DNA from: Mobula hypostoma
Lineage: Eukaryota
Assembly: GCF_963921235.1 (NCBI RefSeq)
Contig: NC_086097.1
Location: 57,724,001 to 57,788,000 of the forward strand
DNA: 64,000 nt
Direction: 5' to 3'
Numbering within the stretch: position 1 is the first letter of the stretch; every line of letters starts with the position of its first letter. The notes under the pieces were generated by a model. The model ran no database searches. It saw nothing but the letters and a program-made list of their open reading frames with translations, and was not told the origin of the DNA. A program made the translations under genes and the position numbers. Below, piece by piece: positions 1,370 to 51,875 of the stretch.

Positions 1370-2030
1370 ACTAAAATACTGCACGTGCTGGAGACCTGAT
1401 AGGAAACGGAAGAGCTTGAAATACTCGACAGGCCAGTAGGCTGTTTCTGTTCATAGATTGGGAGCTAACTTAGGGAAAGATGTGACAAGTATTAAGATGC
1501 AGAGGAAGCGGTGTGGGGGAGGAAAGAAGAAAAAGTGATGTTTGGGATAGATTGAAGGACAGATAGGAACCTTCTCGCCCATGAGATTTATCTTGTTCAG
1601 TGAAAGCGAACAAGATAAACCGCGTGAGGGAGAAGAGTAGACCTTCTCCTAGAACAGAGGTGCCAATGCTGTTAAGATTATCCAGAAGCACAAGTTCCGC
1701 TATAATGTAAAAAAGATGCCCCATTCTTATTTGAAACAAGAGAAAATCTGCAGCTGCTCGAAATCCAAACAACATACACAAAATGCTGGAGGAACTCAGC
1801 AGCCAGGCAGCATCTAATGAAAAGAGTCAACAGTCGACGTTTCGGGCCGAGACCCTTCATCATCCCTATCGTTTCTTTCACCTTCTCTTTGAGTCCCTTT
1901 CTTGCGCCTGCCATGTTTGACCCTTAACATTTCCCATTTCTGATTAAAGGTCATTTCCCTGAAACTTTAATTCCAACCCTCTCTCCACAGATGCTGCCCG
2001 CCCTGCCGAGTATTTTTTTTGTGCTTTGTA
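1370..2030. mobile_element. Old fold-back Penelope-derived element (minus arm ~1370-1450, plus arm ~1935-2030)
   Basis: Degenerate copies of the ctga..gaaac...gatgctgcc..cctgctgagt tail in opposite orientations. Confidence 0.45.
1738..1863 (-). mobile_element. Short Penelope-derived element with hammerhead-like motif
   Basis: Reverse complement tgatgaagggtctcggcccgaaacgtcgactg...gatgctgcctggctgctgagttcctccagcattttgtgt matches the 3' end of the GIY-YIG element at 17964-18815. Confidence 0.8.
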
Positions 2031-2039
2031 CCTGACATT

Positions 2040-2820
2040 TACCAGAATGAGATGCCGATCCGGAACCGGCGAAAATCACCGCGACTCTGCCTATAGACTC
2101 ACGCCGTTATGCGTCGTCAGCTAATCCACTGAGTTTAAGCAATACAGTTTCTACTTTATCATGCACTTTTAGTATTATTTACCCGAGCTTCCGTCTAAAT
2201 GCGCAAATGCATTTCCCAATCTGTTATAATCGAATAACACAAGTCTGATTTTGAAAATCATCAGTTATCGAAAATGGATTTTAAAAGTGTCCACCCCCTG
2301 GGTCTCATATGTTTTTTTTTAAAAATTATGATGATAAGAACATTCTTATTTAAACGAAGAGTGGCTGTTTATTCAATGTTCTGTTTTTAAGTGTTGAATA
2401 CCGATCCTCCCCGCCCCCCACACTCCAAACAGGAGGTTCCCCTTTAACAAAGGTGGTGTCCCGGTGCTGTTTGATGTGGCCGCTCTGTTCTGCTATAGTT
2501 GATCACAGTTTGATTAGGATTAGAGCGGTGCTTGTGCCGGGGCGGCAGGACGTAAATTGCGGGCTCACGTACAAGACGCGCCTGGGTGCTTCTGTATTTG
2601 AGTCAAGGGGAGAGGGACAGTGGAGCTGTCAACGGTCGAGGCTGCCGCAACGTTTTGAGGAAGGAGTGTAGTTTGTGGTCTTCATCTCATTAACCCCGAT
2701 CTGTCATCCCGGGAAAACACCCCGGCGGAGGGGATTAAAAATAGCTCTTCCAATATCTGAACAAAAGGACAAGACTGCGGGAAGCCAGCGTTAGCAACTG
2801 AAGCAGAGCCTTTTTTATTA
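2040..2820 (+). promoter_or_regulatory. CpG-rich promoter / 5'UTR of DACT1
   Basis: High CpG retention relative to the rest of the window; GC-box-like ccccgccccc at ~2409-2418; directly upstream of exon 1. TSS not determinable. Confidence 0.6.
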
Positions 2821-3161
2821 TGCTAAAACAGACGTCCGCTCTTTTAACGATGCCTGTTAACGGGATTCGGCACCCGATAAAACTGGAAGGGGAGACCCGA
2901 AACCGGGAGAAAGCAGAAGCTGAGAGCGATCGGTGCCGGACCCGAGACAGGTTCGAGGCTACCTTGGCTGGACTAGGAGAGCTGGATTTGCTGAAACACA
3001 GACAGGAGTACTTGGTTCGGGGTGCAATGGAATTACTGAAAGCTTCAGAGAACACTGCAGCTCTCAAAGGCGAAAGGAGAAAGGGATCTCAAGGGGAACT
3101 TTATTTGACCCCTGAGGAAAAGCAATTAGAAGATAACATTATCATGTTAAGGAAACAATTG
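2820..3161 (+). CDS. DACT1: DACT1 coding exon 1
   Basis: ORF 2820..; ends ...AAA CAA TTG|gtgaga, phase-0 donor at 3162. Confidence 0.9.
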
Positions 3162-6100
3162 GTGAGACATTAAAACGAACTGCTTCTAAAATAAAGATGT
3201 ATTATTAGCGTGATACTCTTGATAATTGCAGCGGTATAGTGACATTAACTGTAAATCTCCCCAAATATCATCCTACATTTTAATTAGTCAATTCAGCGTC
3301 ATACTTTGCAACGTGGCTTGTAAAATAATACTAGAGTCCATTATAGCAAAACAGAATCGAAGATTCTGGGAGACGCGTCCATTCAAAAAATGTAATTCTC
3401 TGGCATAGGTCTTTAATGATTTCCGCGTTTGCTTTGAGTGACCTTCGTGCCATATTAATTACTGGATTTACGTACTGCTGAATTTCTTGATCTTGCTGAT
3501 CAAGCTAACGAAAAAGTGAAGGGTTTATTGGGAGCATAAACTTTTTTTTTGGCCCCTTGACTCTTCCGGCTCGGGATTGCAGCTGTGCGTTTGTATGTCT
3601 GTTTAAAAAGAAGTGGGGCGAAGTAGATCAGTTTCCATTTGCACAGAGTAACAATCAGACTGTACAATATTGCTGTAGAAGACGTGTGATAGAGGGAGCT
3701 GGTCGTTAATGGCAAATGCAGCTGGGGCATTTACAACGAGTTCGATTAGTCTTTTGAGATGGCAGAGAAGGAGTCGTGGCTATTTGTAAAAAAATGCAAT
3801 AAATTGACTTCCTACTAATGAAATAACAGCATAATACTAATCTCCTCGGAGGAGGAGGAGGTCCGGCTGTACGTTTTAAACCCCTTTGGCCGCTTATAAT
3901 AGACATAGTGACTTAAATGAACTTTACAAGCAGACCGCGGCTCTCCTGCAGAGCGAGGGGCTGGAATCTGCTTATGTTACCGATCAGCTGACCGAGATGA
4001 AGCAGACCTTGCCTCTTTCTGTGCAGTGTTGCTGCATCATTTAATGGAACAATAGAACGGACCGTAGCTTGACAAAATTGTACATTTGGTTATACTCCTG
4101 CCCCCAGATTACTCTGACAGTTGACTGACTGGAAATTGTACTGGACGTAACTGGGTTAGCTCTTCTCGAATTATTAAGCCCTAAATTTGTATATCTATAT
4201 ATACACAGAGGTGTGTGTGTCTGTGTGTGGTGGTGGTGGTGGGGGGGGGGGGGGAATGACCCGCTCTCTGTGGAGCTCTAGTTCCAGGGTATATTCTACA
4301 CCATTCGGGAGGCATTTGGATAAGGTGTTCTGTCAACGCCTATTTTATTTAAAGGCATTAATTCGGCCATGCTTGACAATGGAGGAAAAGGCTAAGAAAC
4401 TGTGTGTCAATTGCTAATATTTCACGGGTTTATCAATGACATTGAACTTTCTGCCACGCCGGATCTACAGACGATCGAATCCACTGCGGGCATTGGCGTT
4501 GCTCGTTTCTTTAAGATAGCTTTTTGAAAATAAAAGTCCACATTGTAATCGTGTGAGTGTGTGTAGATGGCAAGTTGCCAATAATGAAGTCTGTTCCCCC
4601 TTTCAGGAATTTCATCTTCTGCTTTTGAACCGAGGAGCTAACAGTATTTTCATTTTACTTCGTGGCTGTAATATTCTATGAATAACTGACTGCATTCAAT
4701 AATTCTCTGGAGGGATCCGGGATATTTAACCAATTTTCTACATTTTAGCAACTTGTATTCATGTATTCCAGAATTTTAAAGACACAATACATGCTGCAAA
4801 TATAATTTCATTGATTTAACTGAGGAGTGAAATAATTCACAATTAACTCCTTTTATAAATCAGCAATGTATGCTGCTATTTGCAGGAAACACACCTGAGG
4901 TTTCATGATGTGACTGGGATAGTGGAATGTTAAACATCAGTTAAAGGGCAGAATTAATAGCTTTCTTAGCATTCACTGAAGCCTGAATTAGTTATTTCTG
5001 CGATTGATTAAAATGTGTTGCTGCTTGATCTTTACAGAACTGTTTGAGGAGGAGAGATGCTGGCCTCATAAATCAGCTCCAGGAGCTGGATCGACAGATC
5101 AGTGACCTTCAGTTGGATGTGGAAAAGGGTCCAAATGACAACCTAGAAACAGACAGCAGACCCAGTTCAGGTCAGTCTGCTTATGGTAGACATCTGGATA
5201 TGCACATCAAAGGATGATTCATATGAGTAGGAACACTTCCACACTGTTGGAATACCAAATATCCTCTGCAGTTCTTAAATCCTTCTCCATTTGATCATGT
5301 TGTTTTAAAACCTTGACGTTTAGAATCTGATTACAAACTGCAGTAGTTTGAGAAATTTTGTACTGTCGCTTTTTTCCTCTGTGCTCATGGACTTCAAAAT
5401 GAAAAACTTCAGTTAATATCCTGCATTTCACCAAGTTGTGAGGATGCAAATATAGGTGATAATCCTACAATTACCGTAGCAAAATAGTTTGTGTTAAACA
5501 ATTAATAAAATTGAGCAATACAAACTATTTGACTGCCAACTATTTTCTAAGAACATTACTGACATCCTTCACATACCAGAATATCCCAGAAAGAATTACA
5601 TCTGATGTTTATTCTCTGTTGCTGTATACACAAATGTAACAAAGCTATATCCCACCAAGCAGTCAAGAGATAACGACAACTAGTTGATCTGTTTTGGCAT
5701 TAAGTGCTCAGGACACCAGGAAAATGCTTTGTTTATCAAATTGTCTTCCATTACAATGCACCATGAAATCACTGACAAATGTCTGGAAGAAGGGTCTTGG
5801 CCCAAAACGTTGACTGTTCATTTCCATGGATGCTGACTGACCTGCTGAGTTCCTCCAGCATTTTGTGTGTTTTGCTATCTCATCTAAAAGGCCACTTCCA
5901 AAACTGCAGTACTGACGTATTGCAGATTCACCATTCTACATTATGTGCTCAAGTCTGGGACAGAGCTTGAACTCATGACCTTCTGATTTGGAGACCACCC
6001 TAAATTACATTTTTTTTCCTTTGTCCCTCTAGTTTTGGCAGGGTATTCCACTTTTTTAAAAAAGCTGTGCTGCTTTGGGTTTCCCAATGGCTTAGTAGGT

Positions 6101-9100
6101 AAGTGTATCATCCTTTGTGTCAGTAACCCACCTAGCGATTATGCATCTGAAAGGTGCATTTAACCCTTGGTCTGTGCTCATTAAATATGTCCAATAAGTG
6201 ACAGAAAATTTAGAGTTTCAAGCAGCTCTGATAATCCTAATCACTATCACTCATATATATGTATTGATGTCAAGCAAGAACCCTATTGGAAATAGCTTAT
6301 AATTGACACATGTACCAAGGTGCAGTGAAAAGGTCATCTTCCATACTATTCATATAGATCAAACCATTACATGGTGCATTGAAGTAGAATAAGGCATAGT
6401 GCATTGAAGTAGAACCATAGAACACTACAGCACAGAAAACAGGCCATTCGGACCTTCTAGTCTGTGCTGAAACATTATTCCGCTAGTCCCATTGACCTGC
6501 ATCCAGCCCATAGCCCTCCAGACCTCTCCCATCCATGTACCTATCCAATTTATTCTTAAAACTTAAGAGTGAGCCCGCATTTACCATGTCAGATGGCAGC
6601 TCATTCCACACTCCCACCACTCTCTGAGTGAAGAAGTTCCCCCTAATGTTCCCCCTAAACCTTTCCCCTTTCACCCTAAAGCCGTGTCCTCTCATATTTA
6701 TCTCTCCTAATCTAAGTGGAAAGAGCCTGTTCACATTTACTCTGTCTATACCCCTCATAATTTTGTAAACCTCTATCAAATCTCCCCTCATTCTTCTACA
6801 CTCCAAGGAATAAAGTCCTAACCTGTTCAATCTTTCCCTGTAACTCAACTCCTGAAGATCCGGCAACATCCTAGTAAGTCTTCTCTGCACTCTTTCAATC
6901 TTACTGATATCCTTCCTATAGTTAAGTGACCAGAACTGTACACAATACTCCAAATTTGGCCTCACCAATGCCTTATACAACCTCCCCATAACATCCCAAC
7001 TCCTATACTCAATACTTGGATTTATGAATGCCAGGATGCCAAAAAGCCTTCTTTACAACCCTGTCTACCTGTGACGCCACTTTCAGGGAATTATGTATCT
7101 GAGCTCCCAGATCTCTTTGTTCCTCTGCACTCCTCAGTGCCCTACCATTTACTGTGTATGTCCTACCTTGATTTGTCCTTCCAAAATGTAACACCTCACA
7201 CTTGTCTGCGTTAAATTCCATCTGCTATTTTCTAGCCCATTTCCCCAGTTGGTCCAAATCCCTCTGCAAGCTTGAAGCCTTCCTCGCTTTCAATGCAATC
7301 TTAGTGTCATCTTAGAACAAGGTTAAATAATAACAGACTGCAGAATGAAGTACAACAGCTTAAGAGAAAGTACATGATCATAACACGATAGATTATGAGG
7401 TAAAGAGTCTGTCTTAATGAACTAGGGACCCATTCAATGTTCTTATAGAAGTGGGGTAGAAGATGTCCTTGAGCCCAGTGATATGTGCTTTCAGGCTTTT
7501 GTATATTTTGCCTGATGGGGTGGTGGGGGGGGGCGGGGGGGAAGAAGAGAGGATGTGCAGGGTGGGTGGACTCTTTGATTATACAAGCTGCTGAAGTAAG
7601 GAGCAGTATAGACAGTCCATGGAGGGGTTATTGATTTCCATGATGTCCTGAGATGTGTTCATGACCTTCTGAAGTTTCTTGTGGTCGCAGGCATACCAAG
7701 CATCTGGATTAGGTGCTTTCTATGGTGCATTGATACAATTGGTAAGGGCTGATGAGGGCATGCCAGATTTCTTTAGTCTTCCAAGGAAGCAGAGCCGTTG
7801 GTGAGCTTCCTTGGCTGTGGCATATTTGATACTTAAATATTGGAAGTCAATATTTGAGCTCCTAAAAAAAATTTAAAAAACCATTAGCTTTGTTTGTCAC
7901 ATGTACATTGAAACATACAGTGAAATATGTCAAATCAAATCAGCTGGGGGCTCCCACAAGTGTTGCCATGCTTCGGGTGCCAACATAGCATGCCCACAAT
8001 TTACTAACCCTAACTGTACGTTGCTGGAATGTGGGAGGAAACCAGAGCACCCAGAGGAAACACGCGGTCACAGGGAGAACAGACAAACTCCTGACACCAG
8101 TGGGAATTGAACCCTGATATTGGCTGTCACTGGTACTATAAAGTAATTGCACTAATGCTATGCTACTGTGCCGCTGTGCTAAATGGCTTCTGCGCTAATA
8201 ACTTGGGGATAGCCAATTAAATTCTAAATTGGGTGGGGGGGAATAGAAAAATTAAGAAAATGTAATAATACCAAAAATACTAAGCACATATAAATAATTT
8301 TAAATATTGCTGACCATCTTTGGTTTGCTTTAATGTTAAATCTTAAGCAATCAACTATTTTGTTTGAAATACTGCAAAGTAAGTAATATATGGTTTCCTT
8401 TAAGGAAGGTAGATGTTTGAAACTCTCAAAATATATGGAATGTATACTAAATACCATTAAGGTATTTGATTGATAAGAAGACCTTTAACTAATGCACATA
8501 TCGACTCTACCACTTTTTTGTTTTACCATATTTGAATTATACTTTTTTCATTTATAGGAAAGAACCCAATTTGCTTACCTGATGTTAGCCAAAATAATAC
8601 AAAAGTAAAATCTTTAACATGCTTTCACCACTACTGCCCTATACTTCAGAATTTCTAATTGCCTTAAAAGGTGATTGTTCTTCCCTGTGCCAATAAAACG
8701 CTGTTTCAGATACTTCTAATTTTCTCCTTTCTTTATTAATGTATTTTTATAATAATGTTCATTTGCTGCTGATGTCTTCAACCATATTGTAAAGCCTTTA
8801 CATTTTTGCTTGCCTTTTAAGTACATGTTTATTAGAAATCTATTTTTTTGTCATGAAACTTCTGGTAGAAATTATCCAAACATTTTGATGTTACACCCAA
8901 AATAGAGTTCAACTTATTGCAGCTTTAACTGAAACAAATGATTTAAAAAAAAGAATGCTATTTTGTCACTTAACTAAATTTTCTTTTTAAGTATTTCGGT
9001 ATCCTAATCAAATGTGATGATCTAATATTCTCTTACACTACACCATATACTGTGTTTATATTTTTGCAATATCTAGTTTATTGAAAGATTGAGTAGCTTC

Positions 9101-12100
9101 TCTAACAAATTTATGTGAACTTGGTATATAGAAAATTCATTTTGCTCTTTGATTTTGACAGGTTTTTACGAAATGAGTGATGGAGCATCTGGGTCACTTT
9201 CAAACTCCTCTAATTCTGTTTTCAGTGAGTGTTTATCCAGTTGTCATTCCAGCACCTGTTTCTGTAGTCCACTGGATGCACCACTGAACATTACAGATGG
9301 CCGCCCTAAGTCAACAGGTAAGAGACATGTAAATGGATTGTTATGACTGAAATTCCTCTATAATCTGGTGATCTGACTTGCAGTTAATATGGAGTTGGGT
9401 ACCTTCTTGCTAATGCGGTGATGTTTGCATCAAATGTTGACCAGCAAAAAATGCCAAATTTAACTTTTTAGTTCATAACATTACAGTTGTGGTGGGAAGA
9501 ACAGAGATGATTTCTTAGCATTTTTTCCCCTAAAATGCATCATCCGATTGCATATTTGCAACTAAAATACAGAGATGCCACACCTTGAGGTCTTTATTGA
9601 TTGCTGAATACTTTATCAAGGAAGATGGGTAGTTGGGTTTATCTTGTCCATCTCTTGAATTGGGGACGATTTATGAAGAAGCTTACAAATTGGGATTTTG
9701 ATATAACGTGGATGTACATGATTAAGCCAATCCCCTCTGTGCTAGTTTGTGATTTTAAAAAAACACATATTTTATATATGTATTGTGGATTCCAGTTAAT
9801 TGGGACACATTGGAACCAGTACATTTTGACCCAATTAAATGGTTGCTCCAATTAGCCAAGGTTTCATGGTGTAAAAAAGACAAACTACCGTTTAACTGAG
9901 TAACAAATCAAGCATTTAAGCCAAATACAGAATAAATTAGAACACTACCAAAACTACTACAGTACTTTAATACAATGTATTAGTTCCTAATAGTTACCAA
10001 TGGGGGAAATTCATTCAGTGTACGCTGCGGTCTATGGGATGTCCAGGGAGGGGTAACACCTCTGGTGAAGGGGGTTTGTCATGTCCATCCTGGGGCAGCT
10101 CACTTACTTTTGGTCCCTACTGGACACACAGCTCTCACCTGTGGCACCAAGTAACTGTTAGCAGCCACACTCCAGTACACTGCTTCGACAGGCGGGCTAA
10201 ACCAGGTGAAGGTAGGTGGTGGGCCTCGTACCCTGGTGAAACATGGACATGTCTGTCCTAGCATGTGAATCCAGCTCCAGCGGACTAAGCAGATAAGATC
10301 AACAGTGAGATCCAACTGCCAGGAAGGTGGTTCCGCAACACTTCTTGGGGAGCGAAGGACGTGGAAAGGCACAGAGAATTCATGGTCACCCACTACGATC
10401 AAGGAAGATTGCAGTCTATAATGACTACTCATACCACTAGAGCTGGATTAGAACTCTCCTAGTGCAATGGCTTTTCCACTTTAAAAATATGTAGTTGCTC
10501 CAGTTCCAATGCAGCACAAAAAAACGTAATAATACATAGAATGCAATAATAACAAAAAATCCATGATAAATGTAAATACATAAGATAGCATATGTACATA
10601 GATTGTATGTCCATAAAGTGACACTGAGCACAAGAGTGTCTATACATAACGTGACTCTGACAGGAAATGATAAAGTAGTGGTGGTTTGGGATGTGGAGGG
10701 GTGGATTAGTGGGTGGAGGTGTTGATCAGCCTTACTGCTTGGAGAAAGTAACTGTTTTTAAGTCTGGTGCTCCTGGCATGGATGCTATATAGCCTCCTCC
10801 CTGATGGGTCTGGGACAAACAGTTCATGAGCAGGGTGGGTGAGATCCTTTATGATGTTATTGGCCCTTTTCTGGCACCTTTCTCTATACATGTCCTTGAT
10901 GGTGGGTTGCCTGGTGCCGGTGATTCAGTGGGCAGTTTTGACGACCCTATTGTAGAACCCTCCGGTCCACTACGGTGCACTTTCTATACCAAGCAGTGAC
11001 TCAGCTTTTTAGGATGCTGTCTAATGCACACCTGTAGAATGACATGAGAAGACATATGCCTAGACAAGTAGATGTTAAAATTGTGCTTTGTAATTTGTTT
11101 TTTTTAATGGTGTAAAAACGTAACATTCTAACAATTACACTTTAGGAAGCAAAAGGATATAATTTCAGTGTTGCTTCAGGGTTTGGTTTGAAGTCTTTGA
11201 ACTGGAGTATTTCAATGGTCCAGACACTGCTATTCTGATTAACAATGTACATTTTTGCAATATGAAGACATAATTCAGCATTCATTTGTATATTTCACAC
11301 TGTTACATGGTAACAGTGGATCATGATTTAGTTGATCAAACTCAGATAAAATTCTCTTATTTCTATATTGTTTGCTGTGACTCTACAGCCATAGCTGTAC
11401 CACCTTTGATTCCATTAGTAATGGCCATGGTTCTGAGTTAAACAATTTGAATGTTCCTAGTCCCATACCAGAGAAATGAATATAAAACTGTAGGCTGGTG
11501 CTTTGGTTTAGAACCAAGGCTATGCTACAATATAGGTGGTACCGTTTCTCAAATGAGGTGAGTTGATCTATTTACCATTTGGAGATGGATATAAATATAA
11601 TTTTTGAATAACAGAATTTATCTCCAGTGTCATGCCAATGATTTATTCTTCAGTGTTACTTGGAGAAATAGTTGTCCTTTTGCTAACACATTTTCCTAGC
11701 CATTTTCAATACCTAAGCTTCAGCAACTGCAAATGCTTCTGAGCAGAATGTTCACTTCTAAACAACCAGCTTGTAAAAGAAAATTGGAAGTCAACAAGAA
11801 ATACAATTTATAAACTACCCTTTCAATATAATAAAAAAACCCAAAAGTGTTGCGTAAAAGCATCAAACACAATTCATAAACATGAGAAAGTGTGCAGGTG
11901 CTGGAAATCCAAATCGACAGACACAAAATGGTGGAGGAACTCAACAGGCCAGGCAGCATCTCTGGAAATGAATAAGCAGTTGATGTTTGTGTCTGAGACA
12001 CTTCTTCAGGACTGAAAAGGGGAAGATTCCACTCAAGCCTCTCACTTCATCTAACCTGTCTATCTCTTCCTCTGGGGTGCCCTCCTCCTTCCCTTTCTCC

Positions 12101-14451
12101 TATGGTCCACTCTCCTCTCCTAACAGGTTCTTTTTCTCCAGCCTACCTGGCCTCACCTATCACCTAGCTATCATGTTTCTCCCCCCTCCCCCCACCTTTT
12201 TATTCTGACATCTTTCCTTTTTCTTCTTAGTCCTGAAGAAGTATCTCTGCCCAATATGTCAACTGTTTATTCATTTCCTGACCTGCTGAGTTCCTCCAAC
12301 ATTTTGTGTGTGTGGTTCAACTATAATTTGATGGTTGCATATTATGCTGACTGACTTCAAACTTTATCAGGGAGCTAAGTGTTGAGGGACCTCTTAAAGC
12401 AAGGTATAGCAAATGAGATTCTGGTATTTCCAAATGTTATGGAAAACCAAATTTCCCTCGGGATTAATAAAGTATATCTATCTATCTATCAGGTGAAAGG
12501 CATGGCTATAAATACTACAAGACTGAAATACTGATGTAAATAAAGTGAGACCTTTTAATGGCTGTTTTTTTTATTTGCAGAGGATTTCATTGGCTGGAGA
12601 GATTATGGAGAGGAGCTTTTTGAGTGCCAATATACTGGTGTTGTTCGACGTTCATTCTCTGCACCCTATTCTAGTTCCCTTGATGTGGTTACTGATATTC
12701 ATCCCAAGTATCAATGTGACTTGGTTTCCAAAAACGGTAATGATGTGTATCGATATCCAAGCCCTCTACATGCAGTTGCCGTACAGAGTCCAATATTTTT
12801 TCTCCCTGCAACAGGGAGTGTTAAAGAGGAAGAGGAGAAACCTCAGTGTGGTGCAGGCACTTCATCAGTAGCATCAGAATGTGAACCCGTAAAAACCGAC
12901 TCTGCTGTTCCAGCCTCCCAGAACAGTTCTTGCCCAGTGGTTCACCCTTCAACAATGAAAAGACTGGATAATTATATACTTGGCCTTGTTCAGAAGAAAA
13001 TCCAACCTCTTAGACCAAATAAGCCAAGGACCAGCCTAAATACAGATCCGTTGAAGGGAATCTTGAGGCAAGGTAGTATCTGTGTCAAACAGACGATTGT
13101 ACCCAATAACTCTGATTTGAAAATGCCCAAAAATGTTCACACCCATCCTCCTGCAACTAATGGGTCTGACTGCAGTGTAGTGTCCCCACAAAGGCAATTT
13201 CCAGGCAATGAAAATAAACAGAGCCAGAAAAACATGCAAGAATCTAAAATAGAATCTATAAATACCCAAATAACTGTTGTTCAAACTACTGTTAATGAAT
13301 TTCAGCTGAGTAGCCTGCCTAAAAAAAAGGCCAATGTATTGACCAATGGGCTAACTAAATGTCCTGTGACTGTAGATTACCAAGAAGGGACTGGTGAATG
13401 TGGCTCTTGCACACCGAAAGATAATGCACATCAGCACTTCTCAGGACATGAAGACAAGGTCATGCAGCCTCTTAAGGTGGCGATTCCCAAAAGGCCGCAA
13501 AGACCACCAGTGGCTTCCTTTCCCGTGGAAGAAAGAGCACCACTAGATGCCAGGAGTGAAGCATCCTCTGTACAGAGTTTAGAAGATGATGGGCAATTAG
13601 TGAATAACCAATTCATTTCAGCTGAGCAACAAGTGATAAAATCTCACAAAGGTTCCAAAAATGTAAAGGTCAGCAAATTTAAGAGCTCCACATTGAAGTC
13701 CAGGCCCCACTGTGACAGAACTCTTCAATCAAATGTTCAGACCTTGAAACAAAAAACGAAAGTTACTCCAAAAAGATGTCACTTTTCTGATGACATTGAT
13801 CATGTGAAACGAAACGTGAGGAGGCCCACATCCAGAACAAAGAAGTCCTTCCATACCATATCTGAGAACAGCGTTCTTGGAAGACAGACTGGGACCAAAT
13901 CTACTAGGTGTAGTGGGCTTGGAAGGGAAGCTGTCCTGGTGAAGCCCAGGTACAAACAAAGGATTGATTACCGGAAATGGAGGTCCTCAGCTGAGGTTTC
14001 TCGTGAAGAAGCAATGAAACGCTTCAGAAGGCACAACAGAAAGGAGGTGCTCTGTCGTGTGCCTGGTGTGTACAGGCAGAACAATGGTGTTTATGCTCTA
14101 CGGGGAAGTGATTCGGAGTATTCTGCTGAGTGTGAGTCTTTGTTTCACTCCACTGTGGCAGACACTAGTGAGGACGAGCACAGCAATTACACCACCAATT
14201 GCTTTGGAGATAGTGAGTCCAGTTTGAGCGATGTCGATATCGTAGGAGAAACTACTTCATCCAGTGACTCAGATGAAAATGGTGCACTAGTCTGGTCACA
14301 ATTTACCCAGTCTCGGCCTGCACAAAAATCAGCTGCAGAGTTAAAGAAGTCTCCATCAAAGGCCTTTGTCAAAATCAAAGCATCGCACAATCTAAAGAAA
14401 AAGATTCTACGTTTCAGATCAGGTTCACTAAAATTAATGACAACTGTATAA
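2820..14451 (+). CDS. DACT1: Dapper homolog (Dishevelled-binding antagonist of beta-catenin), 4 coding exons, 833 aa; most likely DACT1
   Basis: Exons of 342+133+156+1871 nt sum to 2502 nt and splice in frame with GT-AG introns. Dapper motifs: [84 protein letters not shown], and C-terminal [18 protein letters not shown] (PDZ-binding; LMTTV is the DACT1-type ending). The in-frame ATG at 2850 is an alternative start. Confidence 0.92.
5038..5170 (+). CDS. DACT1: DACT1 coding exon 2 (coiled coil / leucine zipper)
   Basis: tttacag|AAC TGT TTG AGG... encodes [44 protein letters not shown]; donor CAG|gtcagt. Absent from the ORF track. Confidence 0.95.
5782..5876 (+). mobile_element. Short Penelope-derived element (degenerate hammerhead motif), DACT1 intron 2
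   Basis: ctggaagaagggtcttggcccaaaacgttgactg...cctgctgagttcctccagcattttgtgtg. Confidence 0.75.
6411..7312 (-). mobile_element. CR1/HER1-like LINE 3' fragment inserted into an older Rex-like LINE (~6300-6410 and ~7313-7822)
   Basis: ORFs 6483..6989 ([19 protein letters not shown]...[17 protein letters not shown]) and 7009..7221 ([14 protein letters not shown]). Confidence 0.9.
7880..8175 (-). mobile_element. tRNA-derived SINE (HE1/V-SINE-like)
   Basis: Pol III B box (reverse complement gggttcaattccc, ~8102-8114); central ggaatgtgggaggaaaccagagcacccagaggaaac motif shared with other copies. Confidence 0.75.
9162..9317 (+). CDS. DACT1: DACT1 coding exon 3 (serine-rich)
   Basis: ttttgacag|GT TTT TAC GAA... 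encodes [39 protein letters not shown]; donor CAG|gtaaga; phase 1-1. Confidence 0.95.
9783..10020. mobile_element. Possible Tigger/pogo-like DNA transposon end
   Basis: ta-ttgtggattccagttaattgggaca...cccaattaa resembles Tigger-type termini; second TIR not found. Confidence 0.35.
10495..11050 (-). mobile_element. Rex1/Babar-like LINE 3' fragment
   Basis: ORF 10706..10891 [30 protein letters not shown]...[15 protein letters not shown]. Confidence 0.85.
11878..12315. mobile_element. Fold-back Penelope-derived element in DACT1 intron 3
   Basis: Minus-strand tail 11878-12025, then plus-strand pyrimidine-rich PLE 3' region and tail 12030-12315 (agtcctgaagaag...cctgctgagttcctccaacattttgtgtg). Confidence 0.75.
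12581..14451 (+). CDS. DACT1: DACT1 terminal coding exon 4
   Basis: ttttttttatttgcag acceptor, in frame with ORF 12685..14451; ends LMTTV-TAA. Confidence 0.95.
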
Positions 14452-16989: not shown

Positions 16990-17154
16990 GAAGATGAGAT
17001 TCTGTAGATGGTGGAAATCCAGAGCAACACACACAAAATGCTGGAGGAACTCAGCAGTTCTGATGTGGTGTTTCAGCCCAAAATGTTGATTGTTTATTCC
17101 CATCCAGAGACGCTGCCTGACCTGCTGAGCTCCTCCAGCATTTCATGTTGTGGC
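16990..17154. mobile_element. 165-bp fold-back Penelope-derived element with 15-bp TSD
   Basis: Inverted arms atgctggaggaactcagcag / ctgctgagctcctccagcat; flanked by cctttacaacattat (16975-16989) and cctttataacattat (17155-17169). Confidence 0.8.
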
Positions 17155-17963: not shown

Positions 17964-18815
17964 ACAACACACATCAAAGTTGCTGGTGAACGCAGCAGGC
18001 CAGGCAGCATCTCTAGGAAGAGGTACAGTTGACGTTTCAGGCCGAGACCCTTCGTCAGGACTAACTGAAAGAAGAGCTAGTAAGAGATTTGAAAGTTGGA
18101 GGGGGAGGGGGAGATCCAAAATGATAGGAGAAGACAGGAGGGGGAGGGATGGAGCCAAGAGCTGGACTGTTGATTCACAAAAGGGATATGAGAGGATCAT
18201 GGGACAGGAGGCCTAGGGGAAAGAAAAGTGGAGGGGGGGGGAGGAACCCAGAGGATGAGCAAGTGGTATAGTGAGAGGGACAGAGAAAGAAAAAGGAGAG
18301 AGAGAAAAAGAATGTGTGTATATAAATAAATAACGGATGGGGTACGAGGGGGAGGTGGGGCATTAGCGGAAGTTAGAGAAGTCAATGTTCATGCCATCAG
18401 GTTGGAGGCTACCCAGATGGAATATAAGGTGTTGTTCCTCCAACCTGAGTGTGGCTTCATCTTTACAGTAGAGGAGGCTGTGGATAGACATATCAGAATG
18501 GGAATGGGACGTGGAACTAAAATGTGTGGCCACTGGGAGATCCTGCTTTCTCTGGTGGACAGAGCGTAGGTGTTCAGCAAAGTGGTCTCCCAGTCTGTGT
18601 CGGGTCTCGCCAATATATAGAAGGCCACATCGGGAGCACCGGACGCAGTATATCACCCCAGCCGACTCACAGGTGAAGTGTCGCCTCACCTGGAAGGACT
18701 GTCTGGGGCCCTGAATGGTGGTGAGGGAGGAAGTGTAAGGGCATGTGTAGCACTTGTTCCGCTTACACGGATAAGTGCCAGGAGGGAGATCCGTGGGGAG
18801 GGATGGGGGAAACTC
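17964..18815 (-). mobile_element. 5'-truncated Penelope-like element: GIY-YIG endonuclease, 3' region and hammerhead motif
   Basis: ORF 18363..18689 VIYCVRCSRCGLLYIGET..RL..HFAEH..VATHF..LRLEEQHLIF.LGSLQP.GMN; perfect 11-bp TSD attaaaaatga (17953-17963, 18816-18826). Confidence 0.92.
18026..18063 (-). ncRNA. Minimal type-I hammerhead ribozyme motif
   Basis: Minus strand uaguc-CUGACGA-a-gggu(cucg)gccu-GAAA-cg-UC-aacug. Core intact, stem II present, palindromic ACGU stem III. Stem I has one mismatch next to the core (aacug versus gacug in other copies). Confidence 0.7.
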
Positions 18816-19944: not shown

Positions 19945-20063
19945 ATAAAACCATAAAATCATAAGACATAAGAGCAGAATTAGGCCACTCAACCCATCAA
20001 TTCTGCTCTGCCATTCCATCATGTTTAATTCATTATCCCTCTCAACCCTATTCTCCTACCTTC
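19945..20063 (-). mobile_element. CR1-like LINE 3' end
   Basis: cataagacataagagcagaattaggccact... matches the 3' end at 51411. Confidence 0.7.
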
Positions 20064-21166
20064 AGAATCAGAATCAGGTTTAATATCGCTGGCACGTGTT
20101 GTGAGATTTGTTTATTTTGCAGTACAATGCAATATATGATAAAATAGGGAAATAAATAAATAAATTGCAGTAAGTATATATGTATATTAAACAGTTAAAT
20201 TAAAAATAGTACAAAAACAGAAATCATAGCAGTGAGGTAGTATTCAAGTGTTCAATTTCCATTTAGGAATCGGATGGCAGAGGGGAAGAAGCTGTTCCTG
20301 AATCTCTGAGTGTGTGCCTTCAGGCTTCTGTACCTCCTACCTGGTAGTAACAATGAGAAGAGGGCATGTCTTGGGTGATGGGGGTCCTTAATAATGGATG
20401 CTGTCTTTCTGAGACACTGCTCCTTGGATACTACAGAGTCTAGTACCAAAAACTGGAGCTGACTATTTTACAACTTTCTGTAGCTTCTTTCGATCCTGTG
20501 AAATAGCCATCTTCCCTCCCACCCCCATACCAGACAGTGATGCAGTCTGTCAGAATGCTCTCCATGGTACATCTGTAGAAGTTTTCAAGTGTTTTAGGTG
20601 ACAAACCAAATCTCCTCAAACTCCTACTGAAATATAGCCACTGTCTTGCCTTCTCTATAGCTGCATTGATATGTTGGGACCAGGTTATATCCTCAGAGAT
20701 CTTGACACCCAGGAACATGAAATTGCTCACTTTCTCCGCTTCTGATCCCTCTATGAGGATTGGTTTGTGATCCCTTGTCCTACCCTCTCTGAAGTCCACA
20801 ATCAGCTCTTTGGTCTTACTGACATTGAGTGCAAGGTTGTTGCTGCGATACCACTCAAGTAGCTGGTTTATCTTGCTCCTGTACGCCCTCTCCTCTCCAT
20901 CTGAGATTCTGCCAGCAATGGTTGTATCATCAGCAAGTTTATAGATGGCATTTAACCTACTACACTGTCATGGGTATAGAGAGCATAGAGCATTGGGCTA
21001 AGCACACATCCCTGAGGTGCACCAGTATTGATCGTCAGTGAGGAAGAATTATTAATACCAATCTGCACAGATTGTAGTCTTCTGGTTAGGAAGTCGAGGA
21101 TCCAATTGCAGAAGGAGGTACAGAGACCCAGGCTCCGTAACTTATCGATCAGGACTGTAGGAATGA
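20064..21166 (-). mobile_element. Rex1/Babar-like LINE (RT C-terminus and 3'UTR)
   Basis: ORFs 20252..20449, 20440..20799, 20952..21332 (TGAPQGCVLSPMLYALYTHD); (agaatc)n tail. Confidence 0.9.
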
Positions 21167-31340: not shown

Positions 31341-31410
31341 AAAATTTCCTGCTCATTTTACTTCAAGAACGAAGAATATAAATCATTAAATTAGTATTTT
31401 TATTTATCAT

Positions 31411-37940: not shown

Positions 37941-38967
37941 GTGACATGTCAAATATATTTGCAAGACATGACTCTGTCTAAGCTACCTGATAGGGTGGCC
38001 ACCAATACATCATATAGAGAAGACATCACATTCATTGCTTACATTCATAATCAACTGGGTTTTAAAAAGGAATATCTTATTCTAGAAAAGATCTTCTTTT
38101 ATGATTTTCCTCTTTTATTATTTTTGCTGTATCTGAAATGTATTTTCAAATATTATATTTTGGCTGTGGAGGACTCAAGCCTTTCAATTGAAAGTTAATA
38201 TAAACAAATATGTATCATTGTGCTGGGAACTATATTGCATTGAAATTTTGTTATGCTCTGGACCCACTACTTGAACTTGTGTGGATATACTGGATTGAGC
38301 TGCTGTAAAGTGGGGCTAATTCATAAGTGGACAACTCTAAAATACAAACATTTGTGGATTTCTATTGTGCTGCATGTGTCTATATCAATAATTTCCTTCC
38401 TGGGAGACAAAATAATGAGAAAATAACACTGATGCAGCACTTTATTCTCAGGTCTACAGGGAGAGAATGGTCCATTTTTGTCACAATGACATTGTACATA
38501 GATGTTCTCTGAAGAGATTTAGGTAATTAAGTATTTGTCAGCAAATCTTTTCTTGACAATTTTGAATAACAAAAACAATGGATATTAGCGGATATTAGCT
38601 AGCACTTTTTGGAAGGGGGTGGGGGTGTTGTGGAATTAAGCATGGTTTGATGATTGTGGTGTGGTGGAATGTTAATCTATTAGTAATAAGGTGAATGTAG
38701 GACAGTGAATAGTTGATCTGCGTTTGGGTAGCCATTTGACCAACAAAGCAGTCTGGAAAAGAAAGAATAAGGATGAATCCAGAACATTCTTCATGATTTG
38801 TGTCTACACCAAATCACTTTAACATGGTCGAACTTGTAAAATTTGTAGCATGTTCACATCCTTGGTGTTTCAATGCATGATGTAATTCTCTGAAATGGAA
38901 GCCATTAGAGGATGAAGAATTAGTGGATCTTCAGTGAGTGGAAAGGAAAGCAGCTGCTGAAGTGAAA

Positions 38968-39105
38968 CACACACAAAGTGCTGGAGGAACTCAGCAGGCC
39001 AGGCAGCATCTATGGAAATAAGTACACTGTCTGGCCTGCTGAGTTCCTCCAGCATTTTGTGTGTGCTGCTCGGATTTCTAACATCTGCAGATTTTGTCTT
39101 CTTTA
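38968..39105. mobile_element. 138-bp fold-back Penelope-derived element with 13-bp TSD
   Basis: Arms cacacaaagtgctggaggaactcagcaggccag / ctggcctgctgagttcctccagcattttgtgtg; flanks tgctgaagtgaaa (38955-38967) and tgctgcagtgaaa (39106-39118). Confidence 0.85.
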
Positions 39106-42027: not shown

Positions 42028-42194
42028 TCTAGTACCAATTGTTTGGCGACAATAAAGTATAAAGTATTTCATTGAACTGCTGCTACTAAGTTGACAAATT
42101 TTACGATACATGCCAATGATAATAAACCTGATTCTGATTCCGCTATTCCCTCTTTCCAACGACATAATTTAATTCCCTGCTTTATCATTTATTC

Positions 42195-45100
42195 TTTCAG
42201 GGAAGTTGAATACTGTTTATTTCAGAGTAGAGATTAAGAATAGTAAAGGGAAAAAATCAGTGGTGGGAGTTGTCTATCAGCCATCGAATAATAACATTAC
42301 ACTGGCACAGGCAACAAACAGAGAAATATTTGAGGCATGTAAGAATGGAACAGCAGTTATTACAGGGGAGTTTAACTTGCGCACAGATTGGGTGAATCAA
42401 ATTGGTCGAGGCAGTCTTGAGGAGGACTTCACAGAATGCATCCATGATGGCTTTCTTGAACAGCATGTTACTGAACCTACAAGGGAACGAGCTATCTTAA
42501 ATCTGGTCCTGTGCAATGAGACAGGTAAAATTAGTGATCTTGCAGTTAGAGATCACAGTATGATTGAGTTTCTCTTAAAAATGGAGATTGCAATAGTTCA
42601 ATTGAAAACCAGTGTATTATGCCTAAACAATGGAGACTGCAATGGGATGTGGGAGGAGTTGGCTGGTGTTGACTGGGAACACAGGCAATATGGTGGGATG
42701 GTTGAGGAACAGTGGAAGACTTTCAGAGAGATTCTTCACCATGCTCAACAAAAGTATATTCCAGTTAAAAGCAAGGACAGTAAGGGTGGGGAAAGCCAGC
42801 CTTGGATAGCTAAGGAATATAGAAGAAGGCCTCAAACTAAAAGCTCGTGCATAAAAAGTCACCAAGAGTAGTAGGAAGCTGGAAAATTGGGAAAACTTTA
42901 AAGCACAACAAAGAACCACAAAGTGAGTAACAAAGAAAGGGAAGATGGATTATGAAAATAAACTTGCACAAAATAGGAAAATGGACAGTAAAAGTTTTTA
43001 TAATTATATAAAGCAGAAAGAGGTGGCTAAAGTGAACGTAAGTCCCTGGGGGGACGAAGAGGGGGAATTGATATTGGGTAATGAGGAAATGGCAGAGGCT
43101 TTGAATGACTATTTTGTGTCAGTCTTCATTGTGGAGGACATGTCTAACATGCCAAAGAGAGATGTTATGGGTGAGATGGGAGGTGAGGGCCTCAATACAA
43201 TAGCTATCACTAAAGAGGTAGTGCTGTGAAAACTTGTGGGCCTGAAGATAGACAAGTCCCCTGGTCCTGATGGAATGCATCCAGGATACTGAAAGAAATG
43301 ACAGAAGTTATAGTAGAGGCTTTGGTGATAATTTACTAAAATTCTCTGAACTCTGGGCAGGACCCAGCGGATTGGAAGATGGTGAATGTCACGCTACTGT
43401 TCAAAAAAGGATGTAGGCAAAAGGCAGGTAACTATAGGCCAGTGAGTTCAACATCTGTAGTTGGGAAAATGCTTGAAGCTATCATTGAAGAAGAAATAGT
43501 GAGGCATCTGTAAAGAAATGGATCCATCAGGCAGACGCAGCATGGAATCAGCAAAGGCATGTCTATTTGAAAAACTTACTGGAGCTCTTTAGTTCATAGT
43601 CATAGTCATAATCATACTTTATTGACCCCGGGGGAAATTGGTTTTCATTACAGTTGCACCATAAATAATTAAATAGTAATAAAACTATAAATAATTAAAT
43701 AGTAATATGTAAATTATGCCAGGAAGTAAGTCCAGGACCAACCTATTGGCTCAGGGTGTCTGACCCTCCAAGGGAGGAGTTGTAAAGTTTGATGGCCACA
43801 GGCAGGAATGACTTCCTATGACGCTCTGTGTTGCATCTCGATGAAATGAATCTCTGGCTGAATGTACTCCTGTGCCCACCCAGTACATTATGTAGTGGAT
43901 GGGAGACATTGTCCAAGATGGCATGCAACTTAGACAGCATCCTCTTTTCAGACACCACCGTGAGAGAGTCCAGTTCCATCCCCACAACATCACTGGCCTC
44001 AGGTATAGGAGGAAGCTTGAGTGGACACTCCAGCAGAACAACATGAGAGAGGTCTGGAGTGGGATGAGGACCTTGCTGATCTTTGGAGGTATAATGAGAG
44101 CAGTGGATAGAGAGGAACAGATGGATGTTATTTACTTGGATTTCTATAAAAGACTTATCCATAAGATAAGGATGCATAGAGTTAGGGGTGATGTATTAGC
44201 ATGGATGAGAATTGGTTTAACTACCAGAAAGCAGGGAGTTGGGATACATGCATGTTACTCTGGTTGGCAATGAGTGGTGAGCAGTGTTCCGCAGGGTTTG
44301 GTGCTGAGCCCGTAACTGTTCACAATATACGTTAACGATTTGGTAGGCGGGACCAAATGTAGTGTATCTAAGTTTGCTGATGATACTGAATTGAGTGGAA
44401 AAGCAAATTGTGAAGAAAATATGGAGAGTCTGCAGAGAGATATAGATAGGTTAAGTGAGTGGGCAAGGATCTGGCAAATGGAATACAGTGTTGGTAAATG
44501 TGTGGTCATCCACTTTGGAAGGAAAAGTGGAAGAGCAGACTATGATTTAAATGGTAAAAAATTGCAGCGTTCTGCTGTGCAGAGGGACTTGGGAGTGCTT
44601 GTGTGCATGAATCACCAAAGGTTGCTTTGCAGGTGCAGCAGGCTATCAAGAAGGCAAGCGGAATGCTGGCCTTCATTGCTAGAGGGATTGAATTTAACAG
44701 TAGGGAGGTTATGCTGCAACTGTACAGGGTACTGGTGAGGCCGCACCTGGAGTACTGGAGTACTGAGTGCAGTTATGGTCTCCTTACTTGAGGAAGGATA
44801 TACTGGCTTTGGAGGTGGTGCAGAGGAGGTTCACCAGGTTGATTCCAGAGGTGAGGGTGTTAGACTAGGAGGAGAGATTGAGTTGCCTAGGACAGTTCTC
44901 ACTGGAATTCAAAAGAGTGACAGGAGGTCTTATAGAAACATATAAAATTATGAAAGGGATAGATAAGATAGAGGCAGTAAAGTTGTTTCCGCTGGTAGGT
45001 GAGATTAGCTGTAGGAGACAAGATTCAGGGGAGTAGATTTAGGATGGAGATGAGGAGGAACTGCTTTTCCCAGAGGGTGGTGAATCTGTGGAATTCTCTG

Positions 45101-45250
45101 CCCAATGAAGCAGTGGGAGCTATCTCAGTAAATATATTGAGGACAAGGTTGGATAGATTTTTGGATAGTAGGGGAATTAAGGGTTATGGGGAAAAGGCAG
45201 GCTCGAGGGGCCTGATGACCTACTCCTGCTCCTATTTTTTATGTTCTTAT
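42195..45250 (+). mobile_element. CR1-like LINE ORF2 (endonuclease to RT to 3' end), decayed
   Basis: ORFs 42206..42871, 42945..43229, 44340..44738 (SKFADDTEL), 44603..44791, 44999..45289. Confidence 0.92.
43591..44078 (-). mobile_element. Rex/Babar-like LINE 3' fragment with inverted 5' segment, inserted in CR1
   Basis: Minus 43591-43998 (LHAILDNVSHPLH...RHRKSFLPVAIKLYN; catagt-repeat tail); plus ~43999-44075 YRRKLEWTLQQNNMREVWSGMRT. Confidence 0.75.
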
Positions 45251-45289
45251 GAGTGCAGTTGGTCTAGTCACAAACTATACTTGCTGTAG

Positions 45290-46604: not shown

Positions 46605-47915
46605 AAACAGAATCAAAATCAAGTTTATTATCACCTGCACGTGTCGTGAAATCTGTTAACTTAGAAGCAGCAGTTCAATGCAATATATGGTAATAAAGAA
46701 AGAAAACAAATAAATAAATTAAATTAAATTAAGTGTATACATGTATATTGAAAAGATTAAAATAGTACAAAAACAGGAAACTGTAATATATATAAAAAAA
46801 AAGTGAGGTAGTGTTCATGGATTCAATGTCCATTTAGGAATTATACGGCAGAGGGGAAGAAACTATTCCTGAATTGCTGGATTTGTTCCTTCAGGCTTCT
46901 GTACCTCCTTTCTGATGGCAACAATAAGAAGAGGGCATGTCCTGAGTGATGGTGGTCCTTAATAATGGACGTTGCCTTTCTGAGGCACCACTCCTTGAAG
47001 ATGTTTTGGGTACTACTGAGGCTAGTGCCCAAGATGGAGCTGACTAATTGTACAAATTTCTGAGGCTCCTTTCAGTCCTGTGCAATAGCACTCTCCTCCA
47101 CCCACCGCCCCATCAGACAGTTAGGCAGCCTGTCAGAATGCTCGACATGGTATATCTGTAGAAGTTTTTGAGTGTTTTAGTTGACAAACCAAAACTCTTC
47201 AAATGCCGAATGAAATATAGGCCCTCAGAGATCTTGACACCAAGGAACTTGAAATTGCTCACTCTCTCCACTCCCAATCCCTCAATGAGAATTAGTTCAT
47301 ATGCGTATCCCGTGTCTTAGTCTTCTGAAGTCCACAATTGACAAGTCCTTCGTCTTACTGACACTGAGTGCGAGGTTGTTGTTGCAATGCCACTCAGCTA
47401 GCTGGTATATCTCACTCCTGTACGCCCTCTCCTCTCCATCTGACATTCTAACAACAATGGTTGTATCATCAGCAAATTTATAGATGGTATTTGAGCTATA
47501 CCTAGCCATACAGTTACAGGTATTGTGAGAGTAGAGCAGTGGGCTAAGCCCACACCACTGAGTGCACCAGTGTTGATCATCAGTGAGGAGGAGATGTTAT
47601 CACCAATTCACACAGATGGTGGTGCTCCAGTTTGGATGCTGAGGATCGAATTGCAGAGGGGAGTACAGAGGCCCAAGTTCTGTAACTTATCAATCAGGAT
47701 TTTGGGAATGACGGTGATAAATGTTGAGCTATAGTCAACAAACAGCATCCTGACATACGTGTTTGTATTGTCCAGGTGATCTAAGGCCATGTGAAGAGCC
47801 ATTGAGATTGTGTCTGATGTAGACCTATTGTGGTGATAGGCAAATTGCATTGGGTCCAGGTCCTTCCTGTGGCAGGAGTTCATTCTAATCATGACCAACC
47901 TCTCAAAGCATTTCA
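46605..47915 (-). mobile_element. Rex1/Babar-like LINE (RT to 3'UTR)
   Basis: ORFs 47608..47916 (MKCFERLV..DPMQFAY..YVRMLFVDYSSTF), 47297..47509 (YKFADDTT), 46841..47032. Confidence 0.9.
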
Positions 47916-50900: not shown

Positions 50901-51410
50901 TCCCTTTCCTTCCACACTGACTAGATATTTTTAAATCCATGCTTTTCAGCCTGATGCATATTGTATTTTCGCAAGATGTCATTTCTGACAAAACATATTT
51001 AGGAAAATAAATGTGAAGCTTTCAAATAAAGTCATTGCAGCCATCGATGCTGTTAAGTGTTTGACAGAACACTTGACTCTCAATCAGAAGATGCATACAC
51101 AACAATAAAAAAAAATTGGCAGTTGAGAATAAGAGATTTGGGAGAATTACACAGATAGACTCTGTTGCAAAAATAAATAAAATACTTTAAGGATTGAGGA
51201 ATGTGGAAGGAAAGTATCTGATTCTGTGAAGAAGCATAGCAAAAACAAGACCATAACTCACTAAATGAGAAAAAATGAATGTTTAAAGTTGAATTTGTTG
51301 TCACATGCACAGGTGCAATAAAAATCTTGCTTGCAGCAACAAACAAGATTTTCATTGCACATGGTATCATACAAGCAGCATTCACAAGAAAATAACACAT
51401 TCAGTAAATT

Positions 51411-51776
51411 ATAAGACCATAAGACAAAGGAGCAGAAGTCGGCCACTCGGCCCATCAAGTCTGCTCTGCCATTTTATCATGAGCTGATCCATTCTCCCAT
51501 TTAGTCCCACTCCCCCGCCTTCTCACCATAACCTTTGATGCCCTGGCTACCCAGATACCTATCAATCTCTGCCTTAAATACACCCAATGACTTGGCCTCC
51601 ACTGCTGCCTGTGGCAATGAATTCCACAGGTTCACCACCCTCTGGTAAAAAAAATTTCTTCGTGTCTCTGTTCTGAATGGGCACTCTTCAATCTTTAAGT
51701 CATGCCCTCTCGTACTAGACTCCCCCACCATGGGAAACAACTTTGCCACATCCACTCTGTCCATGCCTTTCAACAT
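51411..51776 (-). mobile_element. CR1-like LINE 3' fragment
   Basis: ORF 51501..51776 RRNFFYQRVVNLWNSLP. Confidence 0.9.
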
Positions 51777-51781
51777 TATTT

Positions 51782-51875
51782 ATGAGGAACGGTCTCAGCC
51801 CGAAACGTCGACTGTACTTCTTCCTATAGATGCTGCCTGGACTGCTGCGTTCCACCAGCATTTTGTGTGGGTTGG
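51782..51875 (+). mobile_element. Short Penelope-derived element with hammerhead-like motif
   Basis: tgaggaacggtctcagcccgaaacgtcgactgtacttcttcctatagatgctgcctgg...ccagcattttgtgtg. Confidence 0.8.

Follow-up and report, generated by a model that had tools for sequence, protein, structure and literature searches.

The window analysed here, a 64,000-nt stretch of NC_086097.1 from Mobula hypostoma, holds a 5'-truncated young Neptune-type Penelope-like element (PLE) and a scatter of much shorter relatives. The PLE lies on the minus strand at 17964..18815 and comprises a zinc-finger linker, a GIY-YIG frame (18363-18812), a 3' UTR and a hammerhead module with a mismatch in stem I, the whole flanked by a perfect 11-bp target-site duplication (TSD) at 17953 and 18816. 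A preliminary description of this DNA had listed short copies that have a 3' module in common with the GIY-YIG element, and self-BLAST and alignment show that every one of them is real and has that module. The copies at 11878, 16990 and 38968 had been taken as single; each is instead a head-to-head inverted pair. We number 5' ends from the C of CUGA as position 0, which puts the cut position of the ribozyme at +28.

The solo short arm at 1734..1862 (the 1738 copy; minus strand, old subfamily, tailed) has its 5' end at +1, inside the catalytic core, and no TSD above control. It appears to have inserted into an older, decayed and probable inverted pair at 1365..2020, for which a TSD was searched and none found. 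One arm of that pair (about 1365-1480, minus strand) was missed by the profile and is visible, at 1370, by alignment only; the other (1931-2013, plus strand) is a weak profile match (E 5.8e-5). Untailed solo arms lie on the plus strand at 5781..5876 (the 5782 copy; old subfamily, 5' end -3, core mutated) and 51783..51878 (the 51782 copy; intermediate subfamily, 5' end +1), the latter adjoining a LINE-like fragment. The pair at 11878..12317 joins a tailed minus-strand arm (11878-12023, 5' end -14) to an untailed plus-strand arm (12035-12317) that begins at -264 and includes 3' UTR; the middle of this copy, 12035-12227, is ordinary PLE 3' UTR, the GAAA box is missing from both arms and a TSD candidate is present, not above control. 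At 16990..17153 a tailed minus-strand arm (5' end +58) meets an untailed plus-strand arm (-5) within a 15-bp TSD, one mismatch, at 16975 and 17155. At 38966..39105 (the 38968 copy) an untailed minus-strand arm starting at +28, the cut position, meets a tailed plus-strand arm (+52) within a 13-bp TSD, again with one mismatch, at 38955 and 39106; the ribozyme core is absent from this pair, as had been noted. Three of eight window elements have TSDs that beat the control and five do not. Identity to the young unit is 73-82% for the old window copies.

What the short copies have in common, some 100-135 nt, is the terminal repeat (pLTR), with its hammerhead, of 3.5-kb elements. The full-length unit is 3,516 nt, and its 1,043-aa RT/GIY-YIG frame is open in five copies (L193-L197); the PLE in the window shares 92% identity with L193, an intact unit. 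This single frame gives matches to RVT_1 and, at its C terminus, to GIY-YIG, both below curated cut-offs, and contains DKG, YIDD and YIG motifs with a linker, CKRNKCYTC, at residue 910. A CX2-5CxxC linker before the endonuclease is a trait common to Neptune and Nematis and is present in the window copy too. The element carries its pLTR in partial tandem, with an inverted 5' copy and a one-sided tail, and the module ends 3' at two sites some 35 nt apart. Judged by sequence, the parent family is probably an EN+ PLE of Neptune type. A first look at the genome gave 25,972 RT candidates; a Pfam search of four broken frames of L036 gave no match. In the old (28 arms) and young (63 arms) subfamilies alike, the module mostly follows a GIY-YIG frame at a distance of 200-360 nt. 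The Penelope origin proposed for the short copies was right, and we accept their mobilisation by a PLE protein. That they lack coding capacity nearly holds: the optional 30-nt tail of the young subfamily consists of the opening ~11 codons of the element's ORF.

A profile search of 1.2 Mb of sampled genome found 275 module matches, against none in the reversed control, and these merge into 203 loci. At one locus per 5.9 kb, the density is the same as or higher than the one copy per 8 kb first estimated from the window, and by extrapolation the genome holds about 590,000 loci. Within the sample, 62,381 of 1.2 million bases, or about 5%, match the family. Most arms are only 60-150 nt long, the 256 sampled arms dividing into 162 short, 41 intermediate and 53 long.

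The hammerhead consensus given for the family, CAGUC-CUGAnGA-A-GGGU-CUCG-GCCC-GAAA-CG-UC/GACUG (the slash marking the cut), is correct, and CUGAnGA, GAAA, NUH, stems I and II and the palindromic stem III are all present in the family consensus and in young copies. The proposed minimal type-I fold also stands, the prediction for an intact natural copy containing stems I and II at pair probabilities of 0.79-0.99. One intact hammerhead 39-mer has 28,864 exact copies in the genome (control, 0). Individual copies are another matter. A type-I descriptor passed 37 of the 275 sampled modules and matched nothing in the window, the long copy included. The 1738 and 51782 copies are cut within the core and have neither C3 nor the 5' arm of stem I; in those at 5782, 11878 and 16990 the core boxes carry mutations. 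An Rfam scan of the window returned six matches, none reaching the gathering score and none a hammerhead; five of them were the 38968 hairpin aligning with unrelated hairpin models. The minimum-energy fold of the monomer pairs up the core boxes (-11.7 vs -7.7 kcal/mol for the hammerhead form), a 165-nt context breaks stem I in the predicted fold, and the active core is absent from the predicted folds. Module copies are close relatives of one another, and their decay is neutral. The hammerhead in the stubs is probably a passenger, copied uncleaved and decaying afterwards.

The short copies have TSDs of their own, as had been foreseen: among young short arms, 36 of 38 have one against 3 of 38 controls, with a mode of 13-15 bp. 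The duplications flank the solo arm or inverted pair directly, in 19 of 21 pairs and in six of nine solos ending at -4. Tails follow a simple rule. In 44 pairs, one arm was tailed in 39, both in none and neither in five; in young pairs exactly one arm was tailed in 21 of 21.

The 5' ends are enriched 9-16-fold at the 5' edge of the ribozyme, not at its cut site, and they gather there for either of the two 3' sites. In 78 young arms, copying stopped at a rate of 2.1% per base between -25 and +5, compared with 0.13% upstream. The corresponding rates in the genome sample were 1.2% vs 0.10% for the young subfamily and 2.1% vs 0.25% for the old, the old-subfamily rate being possibly inflated by a search profile that lacks their 3' UTR. 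Near the cut site the rate is 0.2-0.3% per base. Exact genome-wide counts of ends are 1,780 at -3, 1,727 at -4 and 352 at -6, and ends spread over about 45 nt and beyond, with a stop zone that is alike in young and old subfamilies. Stubs defined by ribozyme cleavage can be set aside, with only 6 of 256 ends falling at +25..+34, though the left arm of the 38968 pair does begin at +28. Early abort limited by length can be set aside too: tailed and untailed arms end at the identical position (median stop +1 vs +2, p=0.87). We give roughly an even chance to a transcript starting in the pLTR, with the stop zone as its 5' end. Counting against a pure transcript start are the breadth of the zone (-25..+20), the full-length copies with an upstream pLTR, 6 of 11 of which reach 114-795 nt past it while 1 of 11 ends at -4, and the base preceding -4, where a cap-type G is not overrepresented (7 of 30). 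It is also plausible, if a lesser prospect, that structure or a protein blocks copying at the ribozyme. In the main texts of the openly readable literature we found no description of the stop zone or of this element family.

The preliminary description had offered two origins for the short copies, a family of their own or deletion remnants of long elements. The data favour something else: primary insertions that are truncated or inverted. Very probably, the short copies are dead-end insertions, 5'-truncated or head-to-head, of the terminal repeat of an autonomous Neptune-type PLE.

An independent SINE- or retrozyme-like family would have its own master copies, self-cleaving as dimers, possibly circularising, and moved in trans by PLE proteins. 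Very high copy number, a preferred 5' boundary, own TSDs and a retrozyme-type hammerhead consensus all speak for it, as does the report of PLE-derived retrozymes in vertebrates, one of them chondrichthyan (bioRxiv 10.64898/2026.07.22.740005). Own TSDs are, however, equally expected of truncated primary insertions. Of the 223 TRF arrays in 1.26 Mb, none with a period of at least 40 overlapped the module, and with 43 distinct junctions among 44 inverted pairs there are no fixed ends shared from a master. The 5' ends avoid the cut site, and intact ribozymes are rarer in short arms (11 of 162) than in long ones (20 of 53). An inverted pair has its two ribozymes on opposite strands, so a single transcript holds only one sense copy. 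Nor is there a short-only clade: on a tree of 138 modules short and long copies are intermixed, with 39 changes between them, at least 11 of which are forced by starred branches, on a poorly resolved tree (114 columns, 13 of 134 branches starred). Clustering is mild (5-11 of 500 shuffles were as low), which leaves room for small short-only sublineages. The independent-family reading is thus largely refuted for the bulk of copies, and we consider it improbable.

Splicing is less probable still. The stubs would then be copies of spliced RNA, their 5' boundary corresponding to a 3' splice site, with a branch-point-like motif, a pyrimidine tract and an AG before stem I. Long copies of all subfamilies do have a pyrimidine tract and CAG or TAG ahead of the module, and the intron of Drosophila virilis Penelope ends at helix I, according to PMC4209133 and PMC2377424. 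The tract is weak evidence, since the entire 3' UTR is pyrimidine-rich, and no common sequence was seen upstream of the module. Four contig sets presumed to derive from RNA, when aligned to one unit, showed neither ends nor a usable splice joint among the matches listed, and they weigh neither for nor against splicing. The upstream exon that splicing predicts is ruled out as a captured sequence by the TSDs that abut the module in those six of nine solos ending at -4. That short copies are leftovers of long insertions after deletion or decay is scarcely credible: the divergence of the old window copies and the five window elements without a detectable TSD agree with it, yet in young short copies the TSDs are intact and adjoin the copy at either end, and young and old subfamilies share one stop zone.

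How might truncated and head-to-head insertions arise? The element protein would cut target DNA with a stagger of ~14 nt, and only the first 100-135 nt of the RNA template would be copied. Reverse transcription may begin internally at two sites, as for PAc (Poseidon of Anolis carolinensis) in vitro; both 3' ends of the cut could be primed, one per site, and the two cDNAs joined via short microhomologies. The pile-up of ends at the ribozyme 5' edge and the lack of doubly tailed pairs fit such two-strand priming of one staggered cut, with copying to a likely transcript start. In its fullest form, which we offer tentatively and at somewhat short of an even chance, the stubs would be a genomic record of Penelope insertion: one cut with a 14-nt stagger is primed at both of its ends by a protein dimer, each end invariably from a different internal initiation site, on uncleaved RNA starting at the first hammerhead base. 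Stand-alone copies would yield stubs only, and it would take tandem or circular RNA to mobilise the element at full length.

Much of this has precedent. PMC8557442 and PMC3846280 describe inverted pLTRs, one-sided tails and 5' truncation in PLEs, and 5'-truncated and head-to-head architecture is already published. As portrayed there, EN+ Neptune elements with a one-sided 30-40-bp tail resemble ours in having an RT followed by GIY-YIG at the C terminus, a CX4CxxC linker, partial tandems, an inverted arm, a tail made of the first ORF codons, frequent 5' truncation and TSDs. The Mobula family differs from those portrayals in its ~590,000 extrapolated loci, mostly arms of 60-150 nt, and its measurable stop zone. 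According to PMC4209133, metazoan PLEs, among them fish Neptune, Poseidon and Xena, have minimal hammerheads in their pLTRs. These hammerheads share with ours the type-I topology, an extra nucleotide before stem II, a palindromic minimal stem III, and mostly single genome-wide copies tied to truncated PLEs, with opposite-strand pairs noted too; unlike them, the Mobula stem II has only 4 bp, with a G-U closing pair in the young subfamily. In PAc, initiation is internal at two adjacent sites, both target strands are cut and extended, and uncleaved RNA is used (PMC11167929). The two adjacent initiation sites explain its tail, and these features together fit the two 3' ends and the lack of ends at the cut site in Mobula, although PAc belongs to another clade and its ORF starts inside stem II, whereas the Mobula ORF begins ~60 nt past the cut site. 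Metazoan non-LTR retrozymes are likewise non-coding, pLTR-related, dispersed monomers with a type-I hammerhead (PMC7229834; bioRxiv 10.64898/2026.07.22.740005), and the latter work tabulates chondrichthyan families that are possibly related. Retrozymes form head-to-tail tandems with a ribozyme per unit and circular RNA; our stubs are solo or head-to-head, mostly without an intact ribozyme.

The family itself is ordinary, a Neptune-type PLE with a known minimal hammerhead. Its stubs are easily mistaken for SINEs, MITEs, retrozymes or miRNA hairpins, which is a risk for annotation. As a large body of natural data, they also bear on a PLE mechanism that is poorly understood. One tail per pair, a TSD of 13-15 bp and a stop zone make sharp predictions for work in vitro, and the element still has open frames.

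The copies named in the preliminary description, and the module they have in common, are present in the window (G000:C1:57724001-57788000, from a genome of 3.48 Gb), as self-BLAST and alignment confirmed. Its hammerhead consensus was also correct, judged by the module profile of our sample, 120 segments of large contigs, each of 10 kb and placed at a round coordinate, evenly spaced and not strictly random. The profile made 275 matches there and none in a reversed-sequence control. Merged, these are 203 loci, one per 5.9 kb, which extrapolates to about 590,000 module loci in the genome (bootstrap 516,000-669,000). A single intact hammerhead 39-mer has 28,864 exact genome occurrences (control 0). 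An intact copy has stems I and II in its predicted fold, and a type-I descriptor found 38 matches in the sample, 37 of them within modules, with none in the reversed control. Over the window the same descriptor matched nothing, so the window copies are ribozyme remnants: the description held for copies, module and consensus, but no window copy passes as a hammerhead. In the young subfamily, for example at 18030-18060 (minus strand) of the window, the pair closing stem II is mostly G-U, where older subfamilies have G-C; this may make the ribozyme of the most recently active lineage weaker. Fish Penelope-like elements (PLEs) have minimal hammerheads, chiefly single and with little activity in vitro, according to PMC4209133.

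At 17964-18815, on the minus strand, a frame for a zinc-finger linker and GIY-YIG domain is followed by a 3' UTR and then by the module; all three lie on that strand, which puts the hammerhead in sense orientation. The element at locus L036 is complete, though broken, and has two pLTRs, the hammerhead-bearing terminal repeats. A genome search for reverse transcriptase gave 25,972 first-look candidates, 150 of which were scored. The full unit is 3,516 nt, and its 1,043-aa frame is open in five of the 20 candidates fetched, mostly selected for a long open frame. The frame matches RVT_1 and GIY-YIG, both below cut-off, and has a linker of the Neptune/Nematis type; the optional 3' tail of the module codes for its first residues. 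We searched 404 arms, or single module copies, from the sample, the window and similarity-selected loci, and found a GIY-YIG frame no more than 700 nt upstream in 98. Arms 190-360 nt from such a frame comprise 63 of young type and 28 of old type. Old-type arms, too, lie downstream of GIY-YIG frames; what the window's short copies share is thus the pLTR of older autonomous subfamilies. The 29 sequences most closely related to the 1738 copy vary upstream, with more than 170 nt of 3' UTR, a few tens of bases, an inverted arm or nothing. At L202, a 5'-truncated young element has inserted in frame after another element's frame, leaving an open chimeric frame of 1,130 aa.

The short copies had tentatively been interpreted as a SINE-like or retrozyme-like family in its own right, moved by PLE proteins. 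Penelope parentage survives from that interpretation; an independent family is not supported. We built a tree from 75 short and 63 long modules, 138 in all, omitting arms that were partial, low-scoring or intermediate. Short and long labels changed 39 times against a shuffled mean of 45.9, on a weak tree where at least 11 changes are forced and a few labels are wrong, a young stub lying within an old element. Such mild clustering fits subfamily age and the presence of sister arms from a single insertion. Of the 223 arrays that TRF called in 1.26 Mb, none with a period of at least 40 covers a module, whereas retrozymes are by definition tandem repeats (PMC7229834; bioRxiv 10.64898/2026.07.22.740005). 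Intact ribozymes, too, are rarer in the sample's short arms than in its long ones: 9 of 37 against 16 of 26 (young), 2 of 125 against 4 of 27 (old).

Removing 11 arms without an extended-profile match and eight too close to a stretch edge from the 275 leaves 256: 162 short, 41 intermediate and 53 long. Counting from 0 at the C of the CUGA box, with the hammerhead cut before +28, 3' ends fall at two sites, near +93 or +129. Tight head-to-head pairs include 89 arms. Among the 44 pairs, 43 different junctions occur; the sole repeat is in L170, where two identical inverted stubs 4.1 kb apart (L170:3683 and L170:7781) probably reflect a local duplication. Exactly one arm is tailed in 39 pairs, neither in five and both in none. 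A set of 78 young arms came from an exact 28-mer search whose matches were taken in the order of the genome; one arm was passed over, and the design admits none cut beyond +5. Exact end duplications of at least nine bases, mode 13-15 bp, flank 36 of 38 young short arms against 3 of 38 controls, and one tail is seen in 37 of 37 arm-views of young pairs, some pairs being counted from both arms. Thirty copies chosen for a 5' end at -4 comprise 21 pairs (TSD in 19, one tail in all) and nine solos, six with an abutting TSD. In the window, the TSDs of 16990, 17964 and 38968 beat 24 shifted controls; none of the five other elements has one that does.

Around the 5' half of the ribozyme, the stop rate per base is 9-16 times the upstream rate. 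At the cut site it is not elevated, and ends show no excess. Exact genome-wide end counts are 1,780 at -3, 1,727 at -4 and 352 at -6. Arms with and without a tail stop at one and the same position despite differing by about 35 nt in length, so what matters is the place on the template and not how long the cDNA is. Eleven full-length copies have an upstream pLTR; five of them likewise end between -4 and +47, and six reach further upstream. This zone may mark the start of the transcript, with an RNA 5' end near -4, where bases in both subfamily types match the initiator consensus, YYANWYY. An internal promoter is known in D. virilis Penelope (PMC2377424). The zone is broad, however, and a cap-type G is not enriched (7 of 30 copies ending at -4); a ribozyme that blocks copying through its fold or a bound protein would leave much the same pattern. 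The abutting TSDs speak against a splice-site origin of stub 5' ends. In the intact unit L193 (5790-5812) and its relatives, in all subfamilies, a branch-point-like motif, a pyrimidine tract and an AG stand immediately 5' of stem I; together they could form a genuine 3' splice site, though stubs look unspliced.

Insertion would begin with a staggered cut of about 14 nt and priming on one strand or both. Copying would run as far as the RNA start or a block, after which microhomology would unite the cDNA ends. For PAc, PMC11167929 reports two internal initiation sites, the extension of both strands and uncleaved RNA as substrate. Inverted pLTRs and a one-sided tail are standard PLE features (PMC8557442, PMC3846280); PMC3846280 proposes a further possible route to head-to-head structures, self-priming on an antisense template.

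A Dapper (DACT) gene has its final coding exon in the window as well (12559-14451, plus strand; ending MTTV; 443 bits for Pfam Dapper), which makes the host a vertebrate, presumably a cartilaginous fish. To judge by an exon-like stretch made out by eye near 5036-5170, copies 5782 and 11878 would lie in introns. Repeated fragments with LINE-like frames, which we take to be CR1/L2-like, lie at 6410-7052, 20063-21166, 42173-42871, 44500-45230, 46608-47711, 51411-51784 and 62094-62639, the second and fifth being 74% identical. By eye, a 263-aa frame at 32515-33306 (plus strand) resembles a decayed LTR-retroelement integrase region. C-rich, GC-richer segments contain an array of about 36 nt period (40865-41237) and a second repeat common to 22142-22505 and 41524-41800.

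Literature searches, with Repbase, Dfam and supplements outside their scope, found no paper describing the family or its stop zone. The family belongs to an already known kind of element, the PLE. At L208 (1690-9613), two complete 3.5-kb units lie head-to-tail downstream of a partial unit, a tandem that shows the existence of a template exceeding one unit.
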